A stretch of 64,000 nt of DNA from an uncultured bacterium (GTDB lineage Bacteria; Zixibacteria; MSB-5A5; UBA10806), in NCBI GenBank assembly GCA_965541585.1, contig CBEUCH010000004.1, positions 32,001-96,000 of the forward strand. Reading direction: 5' to 3'. This document shows, piece after piece, positions 13,245-24,652 of this stretch (positions are counted from its first letter, which is position 1; every line of letters starts with the position of its first letter). The translations under genes were made by a program, and so were the position numbers. The notes beneath the pieces were generated by a model. The model was not told the DNA's origin. It ran no database searches and was given only the letters and a program-made list of their open reading frames with translations.

Positions 13245-13503
13245 ATTTTAAACAACTCTCCTTTTATCTATTTTATCTGTCTTTTATTTCAAATCCGCCT
13301 GATCACTGTAAAGAAATATTAATGTCATTCTATTATGATATCGTCATCCTAAAGATGAAATTCAGCGTTTTATTTATCATGTCCTGCCCCCGTTTATTGT
13401 ATGACGTTGTAAGTTAGTCCTGCCACAGCGAAAGTAAAGCTTGTTTGAGGTTGTTGAACTTCCAATCTCTAACCCAAAAATGGAGGGTTTTACGGGAGGC
13501 AGA

Positions 13504-14754
13504 TCAAGACTGCAGGTGATGAAGGCGCATCGGTTGGAATCTTCCATAAGTCAACGAGCGCCAGAGCCACTCGAAGGGTCCGAACCGGAAATAGCTCAGC
13601 CATATCGGTGATACGATCAGCTGAATTATCCATATGCCGAAGACAAGCAAGATCTGGCCGTAACGGGGTATTTCACCGAAGAGACCAAAGCCATGCCCGT
13701 TGAAAATAGTAGTGCAGATTAATGTCTGAAGAAGATAATTGGTCAGGGCCATTCGTCCCACCGCCGAAAGAGGTTTGATTATATTCTTGAAACGGGCGGT
13801 TTTACAAATTAACATTATCACTCCGATGTAGGCCATACCGATAAACAGCGATCCCCAATAGTTGAATTGTATGCCGTAGAAGAAGGAAAAGTAAATCGAC
13901 CAATCCGCCCGGAAATTACGTACGATGCCATAGCTAACAACAGGCAAGCCAACGACGAGCCCAAAAGCTGCCATGGACGCGTAAAACTTTCTTGAGCGTT
14001 CTCCGGTGAGCACTCCAAACTTGTAGAGTGCCATACCGATTAACATCAGTCCCCCGGCACGCCATCCCCCCCAAATAGCAAAGACGAATGTTTGCATGAA
14101 TATAGCGCTGGAAGCGCGATGCCCTAACTGGCCCACCCACCCGGCTTGCTGGGCTCCGATTTCAATTTGAATCATCTCGGATGTAGGTTTCCAGAACTCC
14201 ATCATGCCGTTGATGGCTTCAGGCGGCCAGAATTTCATGGACCAGCCAAAGAAAAGATAAATAGCGGTGGAGACTGAGATCGAAAGCAGGCCGAATATGA
14301 GAAGCCTCCCGGGTCTGACATTGCGTAACAGATAGACAACAAGCCCGCAGCAACCGTAAGCAACGAGGATATCCCCGGACCATAACAGGTAAGCGTGCGC
14401 CAGTCCGATAAGAATCAATATTATTATTCGACGATAGTATATTCTTGTTACGCTGCCACCACTGGCTTCTATGCGCGAGACTATCATGATCACACCGCCG
14501 CCAAAGAGAATGGAAAAGATGGTCATGAATTTCTGATCGGCGAAGATATGGCTCAAAATCCACACCCAGCCGTTGATCCCGGTTAAGTCACCATATGTTG
14601 TGGGGTTGAAATAAGCGGCCTGAATCATCGAGAAATACTGGATGTTCATTATCAGTATGCCAAGCATTGCAAAACCGCGCAGGGCATCTACGGCGATGAT
14701 GCGCTCGGGCGGGGCAATTGGAATTGCATCAGTGGGACGTTCGGTTTGAGTCAT
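13504..14754 (-). CDS. DUF418 (YeiB-like) membrane protein
   Basis: RI..DALRGFA.LGIL, KF..IFS.LFG, GRMALTNYL.Q and F..GPFEWLWR motifs. Confidence 0.9.
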   Translation of the reverse strand: MTQTERPTDAIPIAPPERIIAVDALRGFAMLGILIMNIQYFSMIQAAYFNPTTYGDLTGINGWVWILSHIFADQKFMTIFSILFGGGVIMIVSRIEASGGSVTRIYYRRIIILILIGLAHAYLLWSGDILVAYGCCGLVVYLLRNVRPGRLLIFGLLSISVSTAIYLFFGWSMKFWPPEAINGMMEFWKPTSEMIQIEIGAQQAGWVGQLGHRASSAIFMQTFVFAIWGGWRAGGLMLIGMALYKFGVLTGERSRKFYASMAAFGLVVGLPVVSYGIVRNFRADWSIYFSFFYGIQFNYWGSLFIGMAYIGVIMLICKTARFKNIIKPLSAVGRMALTNYLLQTLICTTIFNGHGFGLFGEIPRYGQILLVFGIWIIQLIVSPIWLSYFRFGPFEWLWRSLTYGRFQPMRLHHLQS

Positions 14755-15097
14755 AATCCGCGGGATGATACTCCAAAGAACGGTATCGTGAATGATTTAG
14801 TGTTCCTCAATTTGCTCATCTTATTTCCGCAAAGTGCAACTTAGATTATATTATGGACTTCCGACGACCGTCAAGCCGGGTTTTCTCAACGGCTGGCGAG
14901 TTTGTCTCTAATGGCCTGGCCGTCCTGTGTCATTTAACAGTCCTGGCCTATAGTACCTCATTTAGGGTAGTCCTGCCATAGCTAAAATCAAGTTTGTTTG
15001 TAGCTGCATGGCTTCATGCGCAGGGCAAATTCAAAACGATAAGGGTTAAAGAGAATATGGATATCTGTGGCAGAACATTTAAACGGTTTTCAGAGAT

Positions 15098-16291
15098 TCA
15101 GCGGGTATACAGGGAATTATCAGAAACTTCTGCTGCCTGCTTTTTCCTAGGCACCTTAAGCGAAAAAATCATATCAATAAACACTATAACCGCTCCGGCC
15201 ATAAAAGTGGCCTTATAGCCAAAGATGCTCCAGGCTATTCCCCCTGTGACAGGAATGATTACGGCAGTAATATGATTCGCCGACATACCAAAAGATAAAC
15301 AGTTCGTAAGATCCTCGGCCGGGCACATTTTGCTGAGAAACGATTTCAATGCGATGGATGATCCGAATAAAACATTATCAATAACATAGAACGCTATTAA
15401 TACCGGCAGATAATTTATCAATGCGTAACCGGAAAAGATAAAAACCAATAAGAAAGAACATCCTGCCAATAATGCGCGCTCCCCCAGACGGTCGCTCATC
15501 TGACCCATAAACCGGTTGGTGAAAATTGTAATGAGGTTACTGACCAGCATAATGATCGATATATATGTTATGCTCAGATTGTGGTTTTTCACGAGGAGGA
15601 AGATCGCAAATGTGGTGAAGATATGCCGACGGCAGCCCCTGAGAAAAGCCAGAGTATAGTAGAGCCAGTATTTTTTATAAATCCTTATCTTGCGCTTTTC
15701 CGATCTTCCTCTGTTAGCCGGCAGGGCTACGGTCAAATATAATCCTATCCCCAGAACCGATGCCCCTATCAAATAAAAGGTTTCCCTGAAGCTCAGGAAT
15801 AATGTCAAAAACAACACCAGACCTGCGCCCGTCAACCCCGCCATTGATTCATACGATCTCAGTCTTCCCTGAGCTTTTCCTAATTCCTTTGAATCTGTAA
15901 GAAGCAATAACTGCGATGAATTGGTAGGTTCAAAGTAATGAAAGCCAAATGACATCAATACTGTCGCCAGGCCAAGAGCTATTATTGATGGCGCCAAACC
16001 GCAGAGAACCAGCCCCGATCCGATTATAACAATCGAAACGGACGCTATTTTCGATTCTGTAAGATAAAGCGCCAGTGCCCCAACACCGAAGGCCAATAAC
16101 CCTGGGATCTCCCTTACAGCTTGAATCAGACCGACATCTGTCGGAGAAGCATCAAAAACCTCCACTGCAAAATTATTAAACATTATTCGCCACGTATAAA
16201 AACCGATCCACATAATAACTGATGAAAAGGTTATGGTGTAGACTGAGACTTTCTTAAATCGCAAAGACATGCTCCAACTGTTGTACCACAA
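15098..16291 (-). CDS. MFS transporter
   Basis: About 12 hydrophobic segments and the MFS loop GQMSDRLGER. Confidence 0.85.
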   Translation of the reverse strand: MWYNSWSMSLRFKKVSVYTITFSSVIMWIGFYTWRIMFNNFAVEVFDASPTDVGLIQAVREIPGLLAFGVGALALYLTESKIASVSIVIIGSGLVLCGLAPSIIALGLATVLMSFGFHYFEPTNSSQLLLLTDSKELGKAQGRLRSYESMAGLTGAGLVLFLTLFLSFRETFYLIGASVLGIGLYLTVALPANRGRSEKRKIRIYKKYWLYYTLAFLRGCRRHIFTTFAIFLLVKNHNLSITYISIIMLVSNLITIFTNRFMGQMSDRLGERALLAGCSFLLVFIFSGYALINYLPVLIAFYVIDNVLFGSSIALKSFLSKMCPAEDLTNCLSFGMSANHITAVIIPVTGGIAWSIFGYKATFMAGAVIVFIDMIFSLKVPRKKQAAEVSDNSLYTR

Positions 16292-16438
16292 TTTAGGTTA
16301 GTATGGCAATCTTAAGGTCAAGTTTGTTTGGATTTGGAGGACTTCAGGCAGAAGGCAGTATCCTCGTTAGCTGTGTAGCCGCGTCAACAATACGTCAACA
16401 ACGAGTGGTATATCTGTGGCGTTTTCTCGTATTCCCTG

Positions 16439-16768
16439 GTGTCGAATAGTGTAGTTCGGATTCCGCCGTTAACCGGAGGAATTGGTATCAGATTTAAGCC
16501 CGATCAGCGCACTTACATAGAATTGTATTCAAACCTCGCTTTCTCCCAGCGGCCATTATCCGCGAGAGATTTGCTTGCTAGTCGAATCGATTGGGATCGA
16601 ATCCCAGCGTGGATGACTTTGAATCTGAGTTCCATGCTCAAGTGGAATGATATCGCGGCAACTTTCGCGATAGAAAACATACTCGCTATAGCGTATAAAT
16701 ACCACGGTTCAGCTATTCACCCTCCCGGCCGCGGAGTTATGATATCGATCCCATATGAGTGTTTCTGA
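16439..16768 (+). pseudogene. TonB-dependent receptor C-terminal remnant
   Basis: RIPPL.G, P.W.TLNL and ENI...Y.YHGS....PGR are typical of TBDR C-termini. No upstream barrel or plug region is present. Confidence 0.6.
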
Positions 16769-16905
16769 ACCTACCATTAAGTCTGTTGAGTAATGTGGTC
16801 TTGCCGTGATCTATATGACCAACAACTCCCATGTTTAATTCTGGCATTTCTATATTCATAATAATGAATAACAGAAGCAGTTTTTAAAGGGTGCGAAGAT
16901 AATTA

Positions 16906-17649
16906 TCAATCCATTGGCATGGTTTTTCTGGCTTTGTAAACCTCACTTAACTTTACATCTGTTGAATATATTCCTTCGTTGTCTCCTGCGCAAATAAGTT
17001 CCTTTCCCCAAGGGTCATAGATTGAAGAGTGCCCCGCATATTTTATATCAATCATCCCAACAGTATCGCTTGACATAATAAAAGATTGTGTTTCTATTGC
17101 TCTTGCTTTTAATAATGTTCTAAAATGATCTGTTCTAGCTTCTCCCCATTGTGCTGGCACTATGATTATTTCAACTCCCTTTTTCTTTAATTCATTAGAT
17201 ATTTCTGGGAATCTTAATTCGAAACAAATAATCAAGCCCAACTTGCCGAAAGAACTTTCAACCACATTAAAATTGTCTTTTCCTTGTGCAAAATATTTAT
17301 GTTCATCTCTAAATCTAAAAAGCTTGTTTTTTCCTCTCTCATAAATTAATTTTCCTTTGTCAATAATGAAACCCACATTATAAACAAGTTCATGTTCCCG
17401 CCTTATCTCAGGTAAGGTTCCTCCCATGACGAGATTATTTTCCAAAGATATTTGTTCGAGTTGCTTTTTTATTTGTTTAGTTTTTTGTGCATGCTTTTTT
17501 AGATTTTCATTATCAAAACCACAGCTAAACATCTCAGGAATCAAAGCAATTCCATCCTGTGCTTCTCTTAAATAGGAATATATTGTTTCTATGTTTCCTT
17601 CTACATCACCTAACTTTAAATTTGACTGAATTGTATATAATCTTGTCAT
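16906..17649 (-). CDS. Carbon-nitrogen hydrolase (omega-amidase/nitrilase family)
   Basis: Glu-Lys-Cys triad context: PEMF, K.KLF, ICFELRFPE, ARAIE. Confidence 0.9.
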   Translation of the reverse strand: MTRLYTIQSNLKLGDVEGNIETIYSYLREAQDGIALIPEMFSCGFDNENLKKHAQKTKQIKKQLEQISLENNLVMGGTLPEIRREHELVYNVGFIIDKGKLIYERGKNKLFRFRDEHKYFAQGKDNFNVVESSFGKLGLIICFELRFPEISNELKKKGVEIIIVPAQWGEARTDHFRTLLKARAIETQSFIMSSDTVGMIDIKYAGHSSIYDPWGKELICAGDNEGIYSTDVKLSEVYKARKTMPMD

Positions 17650-18866
17650 TTAAGCTGTTTTTTTAAATCTTCAATTACTTCATATATTTTTGTTGTTCCT
17701 TCTTTTATTTGATTCACATTTGTTGCAGAATAAGAAATTCTTATATATCCTTCAAATTCCTTTCCAAATGAAGATCCTGGGACTATTGCAACACCCCGGT
17801 CTAGACACAATTCCAAAAGTCTTTTTTCATCCATTCTTCCTGGAATATGTGGATTGAGATTAGGAAATAAATAAAATGCTCCTTCGGCCTGTTGAAGTTC
17901 AGGAAATATTTCTTTTAATCCTCGATAAGCAACATCTCTTCTTTCTTTGAGTCCATTGATGAGCTCTCCAAACCATTTGTTTCTTTTTTCTTTTTCACTC
18001 AAGCCTTTTGCAAAACCATATTGCAATGAAGTTGCAACGCCTGCACATTCTGTATATTGCCCCTTTGCCATTTTTCGAATAGCTTCTTCATCTCTGCTTA
18101 CGGCAAATCCTATTCTAAATCCAGTTGCAGCAAATGATTTAGAAAAACTGAATACAGAAATGGTTTCTGGATTGTCAAATTCTAGCATGCTCGTATGTTT
18201 TTTATCATCAAAAATAATCTCGTTGTAAGGTTCATCGGAGACAATTATAGTCCCATATCTTCTACACAGCTCATCTATCAGTCTTGATTCTTCAAAAGAA
18301 AATACTTTTCCTGTAGGATTTTGAGGAGAATTATGATAAAATGTGGATGGATTGTATTCATGTAATGCTTTTTCAAGCTTATTGGGATTAAAGGTTAGTC
18401 TTTCATTTATTTCCTCTAGAGGAAGGGTTTTAAATTCTGTTTGTGTGTAAGGAAATATATTCCCTGTTAAACAAGGCCAATACGGGCTAAAGCCTAAAGC
18501 CTTTCTTTTTTCAGGTAATTTAAAGCTAAGTTCTAATCCTTGTTGCCCGCCATTGACACACACAATGTTATCCCGAGTTAAATCATTTATGCCTTTTTCT
18601 TTAAGATAGCTCAAAACAGCATCTTTAAACCAGTCCGCTCCTCCTGATTTTGGATATTTTGTGAGCCCCTTAGCTACCAGTCCTTCTATAATACCGTCAA
18701 TAATGTATTCAGGCGTGTCAAGTCCAATTAATTCTCCTCTCTGAAATTTAATAATCGCTTTTTTTGTTTTTTCTTCAATTTTCCCAACATCTTCACTAAT
18801 TGCAACAATTGTTGATAATCCCATTTCAAAACAAGGATGAAATCTGTCTTTTATATTGTCAGTCAT
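17646..18866 (-). CDS. PLP-dependent aminotransferase class I/II
   Basis: NSPQNPTG, SDEPY, SFSKSFAATGFRIG and GYIRISY motifs. Confidence 0.92.
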   Translation of the reverse strand: MTDNIKDRFHPCFEMGLSTIVAISEDVGKIEEKTKKAIIKFQRGELIGLDTPEYIIDGIIEGLVAKGLTKYPKSGGADWFKDAVLSYLKEKGINDLTRDNIVCVNGGQQGLELSFKLPEKRKALGFSPYWPCLTGNIFPYTQTEFKTLPLEEINERLTFNPNKLEKALHEYNPSTFYHNSPQNPTGKVFSFEESRLIDELCRRYGTIIVSDEPYNEIIFDDKKHTSMLEFDNPETISVFSFSKSFAATGFRIGFAVSRDEEAIRKMAKGQYTECAGVATSLQYGFAKGLSEKEKRNKWFGELINGLKERRDVAYRGLKEIFPELQQAEGAFYLFPNLNPHIPGRMDEKRLLELCLDRGVAIVPGSSFGKEFEGYIRISYSATNVNQIKEGTTKIYEVIEDLKKQLK

Positions 18867-18924
18867 TTTTCCCCTAATCAGAGATCAAGAATTCTTTTTA
18901 AAGATTTACTCAGCCTAGAATATA

Positions 18925-19269
18925 TTAATTACTCTTTTCCCTCTTCTTCCTTTTTTCTTCAGCCTTAACCTGATCGGGGAAAATTTCAGAAAGCCTTTTG
19001 TTGCCTTGTTTTAAAACTTTGAGGTTTGTCTGAGATATTGCAGGTGAGATAATCTTTCTCCTCACAGTTTTACTGAGTCTCAATCCTTTTTGCCCGTATT
19101 CTTAGTGTTTCTTATTTCTTTCTCTTTTGGGTCTTTTTTCCATACCTTTGGCATATGTCAATAATACTTTTTTTAAGCCAGTTCCTTCAACATCTTTCAT
19201 TGCAGTAAATCCTGCCTTGTCACTCGCACATGTAATTTCAAATTCATATCCCTCCAGATCAGGAGAAAT
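18925..19269 (-). pseudogene. rps6e: Archaeal-type 30S ribosomal protein S6e, 5'-truncated with an internal stop
   Basis: Reading through TAA at 19102-19104: ISPDLEGYEFEITCASDKAGFTAMKDVEGTGLKKVLLTYAKGMEKRPKRERNKKH*EYGQKGLRLSKTVRRKIISPAISQTNLKVLKQGNKRLSEIFPDQ... This matches the S6e pattern GY...ITG.SD..GF...DV.G...K.LL...G.R.RKTVRG..I...I.Q.N.K. Confidence 0.78.
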
Positions 19270-19399
19270 GATCTTGACTTCTATGTCTTTAAGCACTAAT
19301 TCTGCGAATTGCTTTGAAGGCCCTACTTTTTCCCGGATTCTTTCCCATCTGAGCAAATAGCTACGTAATAATTCTTGCCGCGCTTATAAAATAACCCAA
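19270..19399 (-). mobile_element. Frameshifted N-terminal remnant of a phage-type tyrosine integrase
   Basis: After GAGGAG and TTG, restoring two 1-nt deletions gives MGYFYKRGKNYYVAICSDGKRIREKVGPSKQFAELVLKDIEVKI, which resembles integrase N-terminal arm-binding regions. Confidence 0.5.
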
Positions 19400-19453
19400 T
19401 ATCTTCTCCTCTCCGGCCCGGGCACTAAATGTGTCACATGGCCTTCTGAGAAG

Positions 19454-19482
19454 ATTACAGTTAAAACGTAACTGTTTGTCAA
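19454..19482 (-). promoter_or_regulatory. Sigma70-like promoter with an internal palindromic operator
   Basis: TTGACA-N17-TGTAAT on the minus strand, overlapped by ACAGTTA-N5-TAACTGT (19457-19475). Confidence 0.5.
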
Positions 19483-19510
19483 GCAATAAAATGAGTGGTC
19501 AGATAAAAAT

Positions 19511-19530
19511 AATAGCGGTGCGCCGCTATT
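19511..19530. terminator. Hairpin, possible terminator
   Basis: AATAGCGG-tgcg-CCGCTATT flanked by A- and T-rich sequence. Confidence 0.35.
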
Positions 19531-20030
19531 TGTTGCCTGATGACCTCAATTCTTATCCCAAGATGCTGATATCTTTATATACAAGGATGAATTAGCGGGA
19601 CCGGTCAACGTCCGGGACGTCATACCGACACACATCATTCGCATAAATAGAATGCGATGGCCGGCTGCAATTATACGGACCATCAAAGGTCGGAATGTCT
19701 GATTACTTATCTTTTTGCGCTGGTCTTCCAGACCTGCTACCCCCCAGAGTGGTATGACATTGAATTTGTGAGATCATAATCAAATTACCTCTATTTTGAA
19801 TTAATCCTTTCATTCCGCAATTGTTTAAAAGGGAAACATCAATACCGGCCGATAGAATAACTCCTTAGATCTACTCCATTAACAACTTCTGGTGATTTGC
19901 GCAATAAAATCAGGCCCGCAATATAATCAGACCTGATATTAGCCCGATAATGTTATTGACGAGGACAATAGTCCCTTATTGACCTGTTCAGGATATTTGG
20001 GAGGAGTGAGAAACTATTACCCCTGATCCC

Positions 20031-23000
20031 TTGAAAATAGAGATGAAAGACTCGACCGTTAAAAATGAAATAATCGATGCTTCTATCCCTGCCACAAGGA
20101 AGCTCCATCAGATTTCTCAATCGGTAAGCGATAAATTATATAAAAATCTATTCCATCACTCAAATGATGCAATCATAGTGCACGATTTATCCGGCAATAT
20201 ATTGGATGTGAATATGAAAGCGGTGGAGCTGTTTAATTGTACCAGTTCTAAATTCAAGACACTTAATATGCGTGATCTGCATCCTCCCACCGCCGTCGAG
20301 GCATCAAAGAAGGCGCTTGAGCTTATTTCTAAAAGCGGATCCGTCAATTTCGAAATAGATTTCAGAAAAAGTGACGGTGAAATTTTCCCTGCGGAGGTTT
20401 CGTCCAGCTTGATCGACGCGGACGGGTTAAGAATTATCCATGGCATTATCCGGGATGTGACTGAAAGAGGAACAGCAGAAAAAGAGCTGAGGGAAATCGA
20501 AAAGACGAACCTTGCGCTCTTGAATGCTCCAGCGGATCCGTCTCTTCTGTTAGACAGGGAAGGGATAATATTGGCCCTTAACAATGGAGCGGCAAGAGCT
20601 CTCGGCGGACCTGTAGGTGAATTGATTGGCAAGAATATATTAGGATATTTCCCCCCTGATCTGGCCAAATCCAGAAAGGATTATATTGACAGGGTGTTTC
20701 AAACTGGAAAGCCTGCTCGATTTGAGGATGAGATGTCTGGAGTTATTTATGATAATTCCATTTATCCTGTTTTCGATGAGAAAAGCAAGGTGGATAAGGT
20801 AGCCGTGTTTGCAGCCGATGTCACCGAACGCGTGCAAGTTGAGAAAGCGTTGCGGGATAGCGAAGAACGCTACAGGGCTATCTGGGAAAACTCCCCCATA
20901 GGGATATGCCTTACAGATCAAGAAGGTAAATATGGATACGTAAATCCCACTTATTGTGAGATTTATGGTTATTCCAAGGATCAACTGGTGGGCAAAAGAT
21001 TCTATGATATTCTAAGGCGACGGGGATTTAAAGGAGATCGTAAGAAAACCTATCAGAAACTATTCAAGAAGGGAGAACCCCTGCCGCTGGGCGAGATAGA
21101 GTTCTTGAGTTCTAAAGATGAACAGATATGGGTTCAGTATACGGGAGACTTCATCAGGGAAAACGGAGTGCCCAGGTATCTTGTTTCAATGAATATAGAT
21201 ATTACCGAGCGTAAGCGAGTGGAGATAGCGCTACGTGAAAACGAGCAAAAATATAAATCGATATTCGAATCGTTTCTCGATTTTTATTATCAGGCCGATA
21301 TGGACGGATTATTGATAAATGTGTCCCCATCGTGTCATGCTCTTTCCGGCTATACCCCTGACGAACTAATAGGCTGCCAGGTTCTGGATTTATGTCCCGA
21401 CCCTGCCCAGAGGAAAGCACTACTGGACACGTTGTTTAGAGAGGGATCAGTTACCGACTATGAGGTGACATTACGGGACAAAAGCGGCAAGGACATCCCC
21501 ATATCAACGAATGGCCGACTTATTCCGGATGATCAGGGCAAACCAATTAGAATAGAGGGGACTTTTCGGGATATTACGAGGAGAAAGCGAGACGAGGAAG
21601 CGCTTGCGGAAAGAGAAGAATTGCTCGGGGCAACTATTGAGTCGACAGCCGATGGCATTCTGGTTGTGAATGAGAAGGGTGAAACCACGCATTCAAATAC
21701 ACGGTTTGCGGAAATGTGGCGGATACCGCAAGAGCTTCTGGAAACAAACGATGATAATAAGCTATTAAGTTACGTGATGGATCAGTTGAAGGAGCCCCAG
21801 GCGTTTCTTACAAAAGTGCAAGAGCTTTACAAATCACCTGACACTGCCATGGACACTCTTTACTTCAAGGACGGACGGATTTTCGAAAGATATTCCTGTC
21901 CCTTGATCAAGAATCAAGGGATAGCAGGGCGGGTCTGGAGTTTCAGAGATATCACTGATTTAAAAAGGGCGGAACTGGTCCAGTCTACTTTGCATAAGAT
22001 ATCCGAGGCGACGAATCGCTCAAATGATATTATCGAGCTGCTGGGAACGATTCGAGAGATCCTCGGCGCATTGACCGATACCAGGAACTTCTATGTAGCC
22101 CTCTACGATGATGCTACGGAATCATATTCGTTTCCCTATAGTGTGGACGAGCACGATGGAACGGATTTCGCCCCCGAGCAGATGAAAAAGAGCCTTACCG
22201 ACTATGTCAGAAGAACAGGCAAACCCCTGCTCGCTGATGAGAAAACTCATAAGATCCTGATAAAAAAGGGCGAGGTGGAATCCGTGGGCGAATCATCGCC
22301 GATCTGGCTGGGTGTGCCGCTTGAAGCTCCGCGCGGAGTTATCGGCGTGATCGTTGTACAGGGCTATACGGATCCGACTATGTATGGCATTTCGGATTTA
22401 CATCTATTGTCTCTTGTTTCCGGCCATATTGCATTGGCTATAGAACGTAAAAGGGCAGAGATCGAACTTGACGTAGAAAAGGCTTATCTCGAGCAATTAT
22501 TCGAAAGCGCTCCCGAGGCAATCGTTGTCGTTGGGAACGACAGCCTGGTTGTCAGGTTTAATAGCGAGTTTACGCGAATGTTTGGCTACACGATAGGTGA
22601 ATCGCGAGGCAGATCAATAGATGATTTGATCGCCCCGGATCATTTAAACAGGGAAGCTTCTTCAATAACGCGGCAGGTATCGTCAGGTGAGACTTGCAGT
22701 CTCGAAACCCAAAGGCGACGCAAAAACGGATCATTTGTTGACGTGTCGATACTGGCAACGCCTATCAGGGTCCAGGGCGGGCAGGTGGCAATATATGCAA
22801 TCTACCGGGATATCACGGATCGCAAACAAGCGGAAAAACAATTGCGGCAATCGGAAGAAAAATACAGAACTCTGTTCGAGACTATTCATGACGGCATAAT
22901 TATAACTGATCTTAAGGAAGATATCATATTTGCCAATCCGGCGGCCTGCAATATTTTCGGATACCCCCGCGAAGAACTTATGGCCAAGAATCTTCGACAA

Positions 23001-24377
23001 TTAGTTATTGATGAGGATATTGAAAAGTTGAAACTGGAAACTGAAAGAAGGAAGGAAAGGAAGAGCAGTCGCTATGAATTATCAGTGATGAGAGGTGATG
23101 GTAAGATAAGGAATATTCTCATTTCAGAAACCCCTTATGTGGATGACTCTAACGACATAAATGGATCGGTTTGCATACTATCTGATATAACAGAAATCAG
23201 GAATTTTGAGAAGGAAAGACAGGCACTACGGGAAAAATTGGCAAATGCTCAAAGAATGGAATCTTTGGGGGTTCTTGCCGGCGGGGTTGCTCACGATCTT
23301 AACAATATTCTGGGACCATTGGTCGCGTATCCCGAAATGATAAAGTTGGAACTCCCCTGGGACAGCCCCATCCTCGATAAAGTCGTTAAGATCCAGAAAT
23401 CGGCCCGAAGAGCGGCCGATGTCGTCCAGGATTTGCTTACAATGGCTAGAAGAGGCCGTTATGAAATGAAGAATGTTAACATCAATACTATCATCGAATC
23501 CTATCTTAAGTCTCCTGATTTTATGAACTTAAAGACAAATCAGCCAAAGGTAATCGTTAGCCTCTCGCTCGATACGACGATTCCGGATATTTATGGTTCG
23601 GCCAGCCACTTATTAAAGGTAATAATGAACCTGGTGATAAATGCTTATGATGCTATGCCGCAGGAAGGAACACTCACTATAAAAACGGAATCCAGATACA
23701 CGGAAAAACTAATTGGAGGTTTCAGCAATATTGATGGTGGAAATTATGTAATCCTTACTGTCAGCGATACCGGAATCGGAATTGGAGATGAGGACCAAAA
23801 GCATATTTTTGAACCATTCTACTCAAAGAAAAAGCTCGGTCGAAGTGGCAGCGGTCTTGGTCTGGCAATAGTCTATGGCGTGGTAAAGGACCACAACAGT
23901 TATATTGATATAAAGAGCGAATTGAATAAGGGAACCGAAGCCTACCTATATTTCCCGGTTATGGATTCTACTCCGGATAATGAGGGAGAGGAAGAGATCG
24001 TTGACATACGTGGAAGCGAACTGGTTTTGGTTGTTGATGATATTCCTGAGCAAAGGGATCTGGCAGCAACTGTTTTGTCGAGTCTGGGATATACAGTTGA
24101 AACCGCGCCGAGTGGAGAAAAAGCAGTTGAATATTTAAAATCGAAGTCATTCGATATTGTGATCCTTGACATGATTATGGAGCCGGGCATCGACGGATTG
24201 GATACATATAAAGAGATTATCGAAATTCACCCCGGCCAGAAGGCGATAATTGTCAGTGGCTATTCTGAAACCGATCGAGTTAAAGAGGCCCAGAGGCTCG
24301 GGATCGGCAGATACGTTAGAAAACCCTACACAATGCAACAACTCGGCAAGGCTATTCGCGAGGTACTTTCCGGCTAG
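20031..24377 (+). CDS. Cytoplasmic hybrid histidine kinase (about 7 PAS, GAF, HisKA, HATPase, REC)
   Basis: Repeated PAS ends (DVTER, DITER, DITDR), a GAF region (WLGVPL...IGVIVVQ), AHDLNN, GSGLGL and a C-terminal receiver (VVDD, DMIM, KP). Confidence 0.93.
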   Translation: MKIEMKDSTVKNEIIDASIPATRKLHQISQSVSDKLYKNLFHHSNDAIIVHDLSGNILDVNMKAVELFNCTSSKFKTLNMRDLHPPTAVEASKKALELISKSGSVNFEIDFRKSDGEIFPAEVSSSLIDADGLRIIHGIIRDVTERGTAEKELREIEKTNLALLNAPADPSLLLDREGIILALNNGAARALGGPVGELIGKNILGYFPPDLAKSRKDYIDRVFQTGKPARFEDEMSGVIYDNSIYPVFDEKSKVDKVAVFAADVTERVQVEKALRDSEERYRAIWENSPIGICLTDQEGKYGYVNPTYCEIYGYSKDQLVGKRFYDILRRRGFKGDRKKTYQKLFKKGEPLPLGEIEFLSSKDEQIWVQYTGDFIRENGVPRYLVSMNIDITERKRVEIALRENEQKYKSIFESFLDFYYQADMDGLLINVSPSCHALSGYTPDELIGCQVLDLCPDPAQRKALLDTLFREGSVTDYEVTLRDKSGKDIPISTNGRLIPDDQGKPIRIEGTFRDITRRKRDEEALAEREELLGATIESTADGILVVNEKGETTHSNTRFAEMWRIPQELLETNDDNKLLSYVMDQLKEPQAFLTKVQELYKSPDTAMDTLYFKDGRIFERYSCPLIKNQGIAGRVWSFRDITDLKRAELVQSTLHKISEATNRSNDIIELLGTIREILGALTDTRNFYVALYDDATESYSFPYSVDEHDGTDFAPEQMKKSLTDYVRRTGKPLLADEKTHKILIKKGEVESVGESSPIWLGVPLEAPRGVIGVIVVQGYTDPTMYGISDLHLLSLVSGHIALAIERKRAEIELDVEKAYLEQLFESAPEAIVVVGNDSLVVRFNSEFTRMFGYTIGESRGRSIDDLIAPDHLNREASSITRQVSSGETCSLETQRRRKNGSFVDVSILATPIRVQGGQVAIYAIYRDITDRKQAEKQLRQSEEKYRTLFETIHDGIIITDLKEDIIFANPAACNIFGYPREELMAKNLRQLVIDEDIEKLKLETERRKERKSSRYELSVMRGDGKIRNILISETPYVDDSNDINGSVCILSDITEIRNFEKERQALREKLANAQRMESLGVLAGGVAHDLNNILGPLVAYPEMIKLELPWDSPILDKVVKIQKSARRAADVVQDLLTMARRGRYEMKNVNINTIIESYLKSPDFMNLKTNQPKVIVSLSLDTTIPDIYGSASHLLKVIMNLVINAYDAMPQEGTLTIKTESRYTEKLIGGFSNIDGGNYVILTVSDTGIGIGDEDQKHIFEPFYSKKKLGRSGSGLGLAIVYGVVKDHNSYIDIKSELNKGTEAYLYFPVMDSTPDNEGEEEIVDIRGSELVLVVDDIPEQRDLAATVLSSLGYTVETAPSGEKAVEYLKSKSFDIVILDMIMEPGIDGLDTYKEIIEIHPGQKAIIVSGYSETDRVKEAQRLGIGRYVRKPYTMQQLGKAIREVLSG

Positions 24378-24652
24378 AATACATTCCCAGCATTCGCTCA
24401 AATTGGCTTGCGAAGCCGCAATTCCGGAGTATTCCCCACCATATAAGTCTCAGGGCATAGCCTGACAGGCTTAAGCGAAATAGGTCGGCGAATCGCGGTC
24501 AGAGGATTCATCTCCTGAAGGCAAACCTCTTTCCGAGTCTCTCAGACAATAAAAGGCTGGATAAATATATACTTCAAGTCCGGCCTAAAATTATATTCAC
24601 AAGGCAAGATTCTCGTGGTATAAATCCTGAGGAAACAAAAAAAGGAGGAAAA

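Follow-up and report, generated by a model that had tools for sequence, protein, structure and literature searches.

Transfer of genes from archaea to bacteria has been inferred for the genomes of Thermotoga and Aquifex, and transfer in this direction is usually inferred from gene trees, with the direction and the donor often left open. The locus described here lies in a 64,000-nucleotide stretch of a bacterial metagenome assembly (the window) and resembles the Thermotoga and Aquifex cases in that a bacterium retains metabolic genes of archaeal origin. It differs from them in that the direction and the donor, in this case a DPANN archaeon, are marked by cut, archaeal-only translation genes and not by gene trees. 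Because the insert is labelled by the cut ends of two such genes, the donor group and the direction can be read independently of trees. While the kind of event is already known, the barcode-like relics and the DPANN donor make this a clean and useful example of it; in titles and abstract openings of the literature, we found no description of a pseudogene of S6e, or of any other archaeal ribosomal protein, in a bacterium.

The relic of the ribosomal protein gene S6e (eS6) is closest to the eS6 of DPANN archaea (PF01092, NF003294), with which it shares 58 to 72% identity from codon 31 to the end, the basic insert, the LSEIFPDQ tail and the start of an aIF2-gamma gene downstream. Unlike DPANN eS6, it sits in a bacterial chromosome, has lost about 30 N-terminal codons, is interrupted by an in-frame TAA and differs at 8 of 47 near-invariant residues. 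For the two enzyme genes of the insert, the closest described system is the “ketoglutaramate ratchet,” in which, according to PMC6302742, a nitrilase-superfamily omega-amidase renders transamination with glutamine irreversible. The island resembles that pair in combining an aminotransferase gene with an overlapping nitrilase-superfamily hydrolase gene; the nearest solved relatives of the hydrolase include NIT2/omega-amidase, and its Glu-Lys-Cys positions are kept. In contrast to that system, the island enzymes score below all NCBIfam equivalog cut-offs, and their function is putative.

We consider it highly probable that a piece of about 2.5 kb of a DPANN chromosome became integrated in the bacterium, where the enzyme pair has been kept and the fragments of translation genes are decaying. 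According to this proposal, a random piece of that size from a Pacearchaeota/Woesearchaeota-like chromosome would have entered the bacterium and been integrated by illegitimate recombination just past the stop codon of a TonB-receptor gene. The donor piece would have been the variable spacer between the S6e and aIF2-gamma genes, with breaks inside both, so that the bacterium would have received S6e minus about 30 codons, two complete enzymes and 35 codons of aIF2-gamma. The enzyme genes would then have been retained, while the S6e and aIF2-gamma fragments, functionless in a bacterium, would have been left to decay; S6e would thus be a pseudogene and a barcode of the donor, not a working gene. 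Of this history, the analysis shows what the genes are and how they are damaged, that the host is a bacterium, that S6e has its affinity with DPANN archaea, that the genes follow a donor-type order and that diverged strains carry the island with these flanks.

An archaeal block in a bacterial chromosome

The GC profile drops from about 47% in the surroundings to 32 to 35% between approximately 16.77 and 19.30 kb of the window, where an archaeal fragment of about 2.54 kb is found (16755 to 19290, minus strand, 32 to 35% GC). In minus-strand order, this block contains the S6e relic, an aminotransferase gene, a carbon-nitrogen (CN) hydrolase gene and the first 35 codons of aIF2-gamma. The aIF2-gamma stub (16755 to 16859, minus strand) includes the P-loop GHIDHGKTT, with the open reading frame continuing to a stop at 16737, and is 65 to 78% identical to the starts of the genes located downstream of S6e in DPANN loci. 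Two of these downstream genes were checked and both featured GTP_EFTU and eIF2_C domains, so the genes are aIF2-gamma; the NCBIfam model of the IF-2 gamma subunit also matches the stub itself, at positions 5 to 37 of 412 (E = 8.9e-9). With the S6e relic on one side and the aIF2-gamma stub on the other, the block is thus cut within an archaeal translation gene at either end. A first-pass annotation, made from the letters of the window, had placed the junctions of an island near 16.85 and 19.27 kb; the island itself stands, whereas its edges had to be moved to 16.755 to 16.768 kb and 19.29 to 19.32 kb.

The genome that carries this block is bacterial. It is a metagenome assembly of 3.52 Mb in 40 contigs (98% complete, 0.94% contamination), in which the island is part of a contig of 244,769 bp. 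Bacterial ribosomal protein S6 (bS6) is present, and neither S4e nor eIF2_C, the C-terminal domain of aIF2-gamma, was found in the host genome, in agreement with the earlier view of the chromosome as bacterial. The search for the S6e family matched only the 4 archaeal genomes among 14 controls, the 10 bacterial ones remaining unmatched; it returned only the window copy from the host genome and none from 40 relatives of the host, down to class level. These counts uphold the starting premise that S6e is found in archaea and not in bacteria. The carrier of the present copy is neither archaeal nor eukaryotic, to judge from its bS6, the lack of eIF2_C and S4e in the searches and the remnant of a TonB receptor next to the block.

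TonB-dependent receptors are bacterial outer-membrane proteins, and the C-terminal end of one of them, about 105 codons long, forms the left flank (16439 to 16768, plus strand, within a 109-codon ORF); the rest of the gene is lost, and the stop codon of the remnant abuts the island. Of 120 genomes searched from the host's class, 18 contain C-terminal stretches that match the remnant (27 to 42% identity). Thirteen of these 18 matches are located in open frames of 720 to 800 amino acids (31 to 42% identity), and one homolog carries the domains Plug and TonB_dep_Rec_b-barrel. On the other side, the right flank starts with about 740 bp that hold no recognisable gene (19291 to 20030) and for which tblastx found no counterpart in the DPANN loci or elsewhere in the genome. 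It is followed by an open frame of 1448 amino acids (20031 to 24377, plus strand), which we take, from its translation, to be a PAS sensor histidine kinase. The 3' part of this frame matches relatives at 64 to 66% DNA identity, and the MFS gene beside the island matches a relative of the host at 73%.

The block is unlike the host in composition. Compared with 13 genomes from the host's family, its DNA gave no match, whereas DNA of the flanks did. When the DNA from 13500 to 24400 was compared with these 13 genomes, only parts of the flanks were recovered, and the MFS ortholog in one relative (G007, 78% amino acid identity) has different neighbors; therefore, the empty site that preceded the insertion could not be reconstructed. 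No Rfam family matched between 16100 and 20100 at E values up to 1, and a scan for promoters and terminators returned promoter-like sites at chance level (13 versus 11.6 expected).

Two short repeats occur on the left side of the island. A noncoding stretch at 16274 to 16463 recurs over about 50 to 190 bases in intergenic DNA of the host and in relatives (73 to 88% identity), with further copies in the host assembly (G000) at C4:12925-13067, C4:13863-14042 and C18:57172-57260. Many metagenome contigs match only positions 16379 to 16427 of it and diverge on both sides. No Rfam family corresponds to it, and it could be a small repeat, a promoter element or a leader shared between loci. The second repeat, at about 14950 to 15030, sits at or just beyond the 3' end of the MFS gene and is found on several host contigs and in relatives (78 to 94% identity over 32 to 75 bases).

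The route of entry that we infer, naked DNA joined by illegitimate recombination, has to be weighed against an arrival by a mobile element, a virus or vesicle-packaged DNA carrying archaeal chromosome. We regard such a vehicle as improbable, since a scan of the block and of the genes around it (CBS, DUF418, MFS, the receptor remnant and an alginate-export protein) recovered no recombinase, integrase, transposase or phage gene, neither terminal inverted nor flanking direct repeats were found at its borders at 16755 and 19290, and the window contains no tRNA gene. Thus, none of the marks of a mobile element, namely a recombinase gene, terminal repeats and a target-site duplication, was recovered at this locus.

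The island and its flanks in diverged strains

The first-pass annotation had argued from the decay of S6e for real residence of the block in the chromosome, as opposed to a join made during assembly. To look at this in other samples, contigs from four runs belonging to four studies (X1 to X4, Logan contigs) were aligned over the junctions. None of the public runs contained the window itself, the shares of its sampled words being at most 0.12. A contig of 11,122 bp from X1 covers positions 16579 to 18938 (189 differences, 3 gaps) and 19004 to 20400 (145 differences, 4 gaps); the 65 bases of the S6e tail in between (18938 to 19004) are replaced by 67 others. This contig spans both junctions at 8 to 10% divergence and therefore presents the same island between the same flanks. 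The left junction is also bridged by a 486-bp contig from X2, another study (16691 to 17099), while the right junction is bridged by the X1 contig only; X3 and X4 contributed short contigs that cover some of the island and of the flanking DNA. Both junctions thus recur outside the present assembly, in the X1 contig, and the left one in the X2 contig as well, and the case for residence holds at the level of contigs, as distinct from reads. The insertion is older than the strain split of 8 to 10% and young enough to have kept the GC content of the donor.

These contigs bear most heavily on the possibility that reads of a co-occurring DPANN archaeon were joined into a bacterial contig during assembly or binning. 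Such an artefact has some grounds: the genome is a metagenome assembly of 40 contigs, DPANN S6e occurs in the same kinds of samples (loose ends of X2 and X3 contigs at 19233 to 19269 continue as normal archaeal S6e), and one misbinned archaeal contig was seen in another metagenome-assembled genome (MAG). However, it needs two false joins, both inside genes, and the X1 contig, at 8 to 10% difference, has identical joins and identical flanks, with the left join bridged once more in the X2 study. Moreover, the stop, the eight near-invariant changes and the missing start of the relic (see below) are not expected in the S6e of a live archaeon, and the contig is 244,769 bp long, with DNA on both sides of the island matching relatives of the host (the MFS gene at 73%, the kinase-like frame at 64 to 66%). 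The artefact is therefore very unlikely, and we regard it as largely refuted.

The differences between the X1 contig and the window are unevenly distributed. All seven indels, at 16603, 16765, 16892, 19133, 19340, 19432 and 20026, fall outside the two enzyme genes, and the one at 19133, a 1-base deletion, falls inside S6e. At least 36 differences are found in the 197 bases from 16611 to 16807, which comprise receptor remnant and aIF2-gamma stub, versus at most 153 in the next 2131 bases, nearly all of which code for the enzymes. The receptor remnant itself carries deletions of 161 and 224 bases in two sister strains.

Extent and lesions of the S6e relic

Positions 18928 to 19290 of the window encode, on the minus strand, 121 codons of archaeal ribosomal protein S6e with a single in-frame TAA; including its end, the DPANN-type pseudogene occupies 18925 to 19290 (minus strand, codon 31 approximately to the end). 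The premature TAA is located at 19102 to 19104, and a few more codons then separate the two fragments into which the reading frame has fallen, one of 84 codons (19102 to 19356, minus strand) and one of 52 codons (18925 to 19083, minus strand). Translated through the stop from 18928 to 19356 (143 residues, with X at the TAA), the sequence matches Pfam Ribosomal_S6e (PF01092) with an E value of 2.2e-17 and 63.5 bits, against a cut-off of 26 bits, over profile positions 33 to 124 of 125. NCBIfam model NF003294 gives 68.8 bits, with a cut-off of 135. To place the start more precisely, we used a clade profile built from 107 full-length DPANN S6e proteins (156 positions), which aligns with the relic over positions 31 to 150 (180 bits, E = 2.7e-57), beginning at window position 19290. 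The identification of S6e in the earlier span of 18925 to 19269 was therefore correct, but its right limit was not, as recognisable S6e reaches 19290.

Up to 19560, all three minus-strand frames were searched without finding a counterpart to the first 30 positions of the clade profile, and the relic, lacking its first 30 or so codons, is not a full-length, uninterrupted frame. A candidate N-terminal piece upstream of 19290 showed a weak MAFFT likeness only and gained no support from the profile search or from tblastx of 19300 to 20050 against DPANN loci.

Residues that hardly vary elsewhere are altered in what is left. Among the 47 columns conserved in at least 95% of the 107 homologs, 8 are changed in the relic, compared to a mean of 0.7 and a maximum of 4 in the homologs; for the 27 columns conserved in at least 99%, the relic has 5 changes and the homologs at most 2. 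The motif changes include ITG to ITC and KTVRGK to KTVRRK and, further, EGKKK to ERNKK, PKGLRLR to QKGLRLS and QIN to QTN. In the S6e tree, the terminal branch of the relic has a length of 0.76, 2.5 times the median of 0.30, and its placement within DPANN is without support. The Pfam and profile matches, the missing start, the changed near-invariant columns and the long branch together confirm a truncated, decayed S6e gene. This bears out the original reading of the gene as decayed, with one TAA, no N terminus and mutated conserved glycines (ITC for ITG, KTVRR for KTVRG), now seen in an alignment with homologs.

That S6e still works in the bacterium, for instance by read-through of the TAA or as a shortened protein, is scarcely credible: the 84-codon and 52-codon ORFs are indeed still open and most of the relic is still about 70% identical to its homologs, but 30 profile positions are missing at the start, the most conserved columns have more changes than any homolog, the terminal branch is far longer than the median, the sister strain adds the deletion at 19133 and the replaced 65-base stretch, and, to our knowledge, bacterial ribosomes have no eS6, in line with the unmatched bacterial controls.

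Donor gene order and the retained enzymes

The donor of the fragment can be approached through the relatives of S6e and through the genes next to them. Among the 120 S6e matches listed, identities to the relic range from 58 to 72%, and those with a name are all labelled Pacearchaeota, Nanoarchaeota or “archaeon.” In species-representative genomes, 260 stretches encode S6e relatives, and the best 80 of these 260 were examined as loci (L012 to L091): the labels of 79 are archaeal (DPANN), and the remaining one is an archaeal contig that was misbinned. The DPANN likeness suggested earlier for the basic insert and the LSEIFPDQ tail holds, as both match the DPANN consensus, and the nearest relatives are labelled Pacearchaeota, Woesearchaeota or Nanoarchaeota. 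The remaining case, L031 (DATJPO010000027.1, 8,056 bp, labelled Omnitrophota), was considered as a second instance of S6e in a bacterium and rejected, since this contig proved to be ordinary archaeal DNA in which S6e is intact and adjoins an aIF5B-type GTPase gene. Although beta-lactamase-family and response-regulator genes are present as well, L031 looks like archaeal DNA binned in a bacterial MAG.

In 57 of the 80 DPANN loci, aIF2-gamma starts 61 to 4056 bp downstream of S6e on the same strand; in the window this distance is 2066 bp. Long spacers between the two genes hold a variety of accessory genes (prephenate dehydratase, DAHP synthase, NUDIX, MgsA, subtilase, lipid kinase, alkylation repair, MscS and TerC), and across the 80 loci the spacer acts as a hot spot at which genes are gained and lost beside core translation genes. 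The description of S6e as a passenger of cross-domain transfer fits this arrangement, the relic being the cut 5' end of a 2.5-kb segment with the aIF2-gamma stub at its other end.

By tblastn, neither the aminotransferase nor the hydrolase was found in the 80 S6e loci. Among 401 genomes of the DPANN class, 3 have the aminotransferase type of the island (50, 41 and 40% identity). Two of these three carry it on the same strand between S6e and aIF2-gamma, and in one it follows S6e directly. The hydrolase is absent from these two loci as well. Donor gene order is thus recovered for S6e and aIF2-gamma with the aminotransferase between them and not for the hydrolase, and the exact order S6e-aminotransferase-hydrolase-aIF2-gamma was not recovered from any archaeal genome. 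A metagenome scan for the donor arrangement returned two loci, neither of which was informative; in L102, on a low-GC contig of 394 kb, the aminotransferase does not adjoin S6e.

On the bacterial side, searches for this aminotransferase type recovered nothing from the genus, family or order of the host; elsewhere in the phylum, only 5 of 200 genomes have it. These five genomes (L104 to L108 and L117 to L119) belong to two genera of one family, f9; their copies are 48 to 51% identical to the island gene and have a GC content of 52 to 56%, which is normal for their hosts, and no S6e or aIF2-gamma fragment lies near them in the four loci checked. The f9 gene may have been acquired earlier and separately, or it may mark the lineage from which the family came. 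The nearest named relatives of the hydrolase are bacterial (Aquificota, 47 to 56%; a cluster labelled Marinimicrobia, 62%), and the aminotransferase tree mixes DPANN and bacterial sequences without settling the deeper origin. The cassette may therefore be of older bacterial ancestry and have come to the host by way of a DPANN genome; the S6e and aIF2-gamma fragments at its sides identify the last donor only.

If the integration of DPANN DNA proposed above is correct, a free-living sediment bacterium can take up enzyme genes from genome-reduced DPANN archaea and retain them as their informational passengers rot, and the island provides, side by side in nature, transferred genes that survive and others that do not. 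The case also suggests a screen for fragments of archaeal-only ribosomal-protein and initiation-factor genes with bacterial flanks, which could measure such traffic and hint at the organisms that are in contact. It is tempting to go further and propose that pieces of about 2.5 kb enter bacteria repeatedly, because some Pacearchaeota/Woesearchaeota-like archaea would live in physical contact with bacteria, and not with other archaea alone, and pass DNA on by this contact. We hold this extension to be unlikely; if it were true, decayed archaeal-only translation genes in bacteria would be a searchable record of the bacterial hosts of DPANN lineages.

Both enzyme genes are intact. The first encodes a class I/II PLP aminotransferase of 406 amino acids (17646 to 18866, minus strand; Pfam Aminotran_1_2, E = 7.2e-46), with an SFSKSF stretch that we take to be the site of the PLP-binding lysine. 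Its best curated match is an NCBIfam model of archaeal aspartate aminotransferase (176 bits, cut-off 550), and the host's own aminotransferase paralogs are at most 31% identical to it. Overlapping it by 4 bases, the second gene encodes a CN hydrolase of 247 amino acids from a branch resembling Nit/omega-amidase (16906 to 17649, minus strand; Pfam CN_hydrolase, E = 1.7e-33). Residues Glu39, Lys107 and Cys142 of the hydrolase are invariant in 11 aligned sequences and presumably form the Glu-Lys-Cys catalytic triad. The nearest solved structures include NIT2 (2w1v, E = 6.7e-20) and yeast Nit3 (1f89). Its best NCBIfam matches score 93 and 88 bits, with cut-offs of 249 and 355, so that neither enzyme reaches an NCBIfam equivalog cut-off. 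Judging from the adjacency of the genes and from their families, the two enzymes are plausibly a pair in which transamination is made irreversible by hydrolysis of the amide by-product. This pairing was seen only in the clade of the island and on one JGI metagenome contig of 2,977 bp, which holds the closest outgroup pair (58 and 63% identity).

Sister-strain proteins suggest that the two genes are under constraint. In the protein database, the aminotransferase is represented by three variants with at least 90% identity, on contigs of 244,769, 11,985 and 2,910 bp. The variant P0121 is identical to the island aminotransferase at 391 of 406 positions (96%) and the variant P0242 to the hydrolase at 215 of 247 (87%), both without gaps, and the two variants share the 11,985-bp contig. 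Both genes have been kept open and look constrained, and we infer selection on them: dN/dS of the pair would be about 0.1 to 0.2, a rough estimate from the counts of differences. Change is about threefold faster in the hydrolase than in the aminotransferase (13 versus 4% of amino acids), and selection on the hydrolase may be relaxing. In P0242, the first 60 residues are identical to those of the island hydrolase, and a leucine replaces the tryptophan of the nearly invariant DPWG motif.
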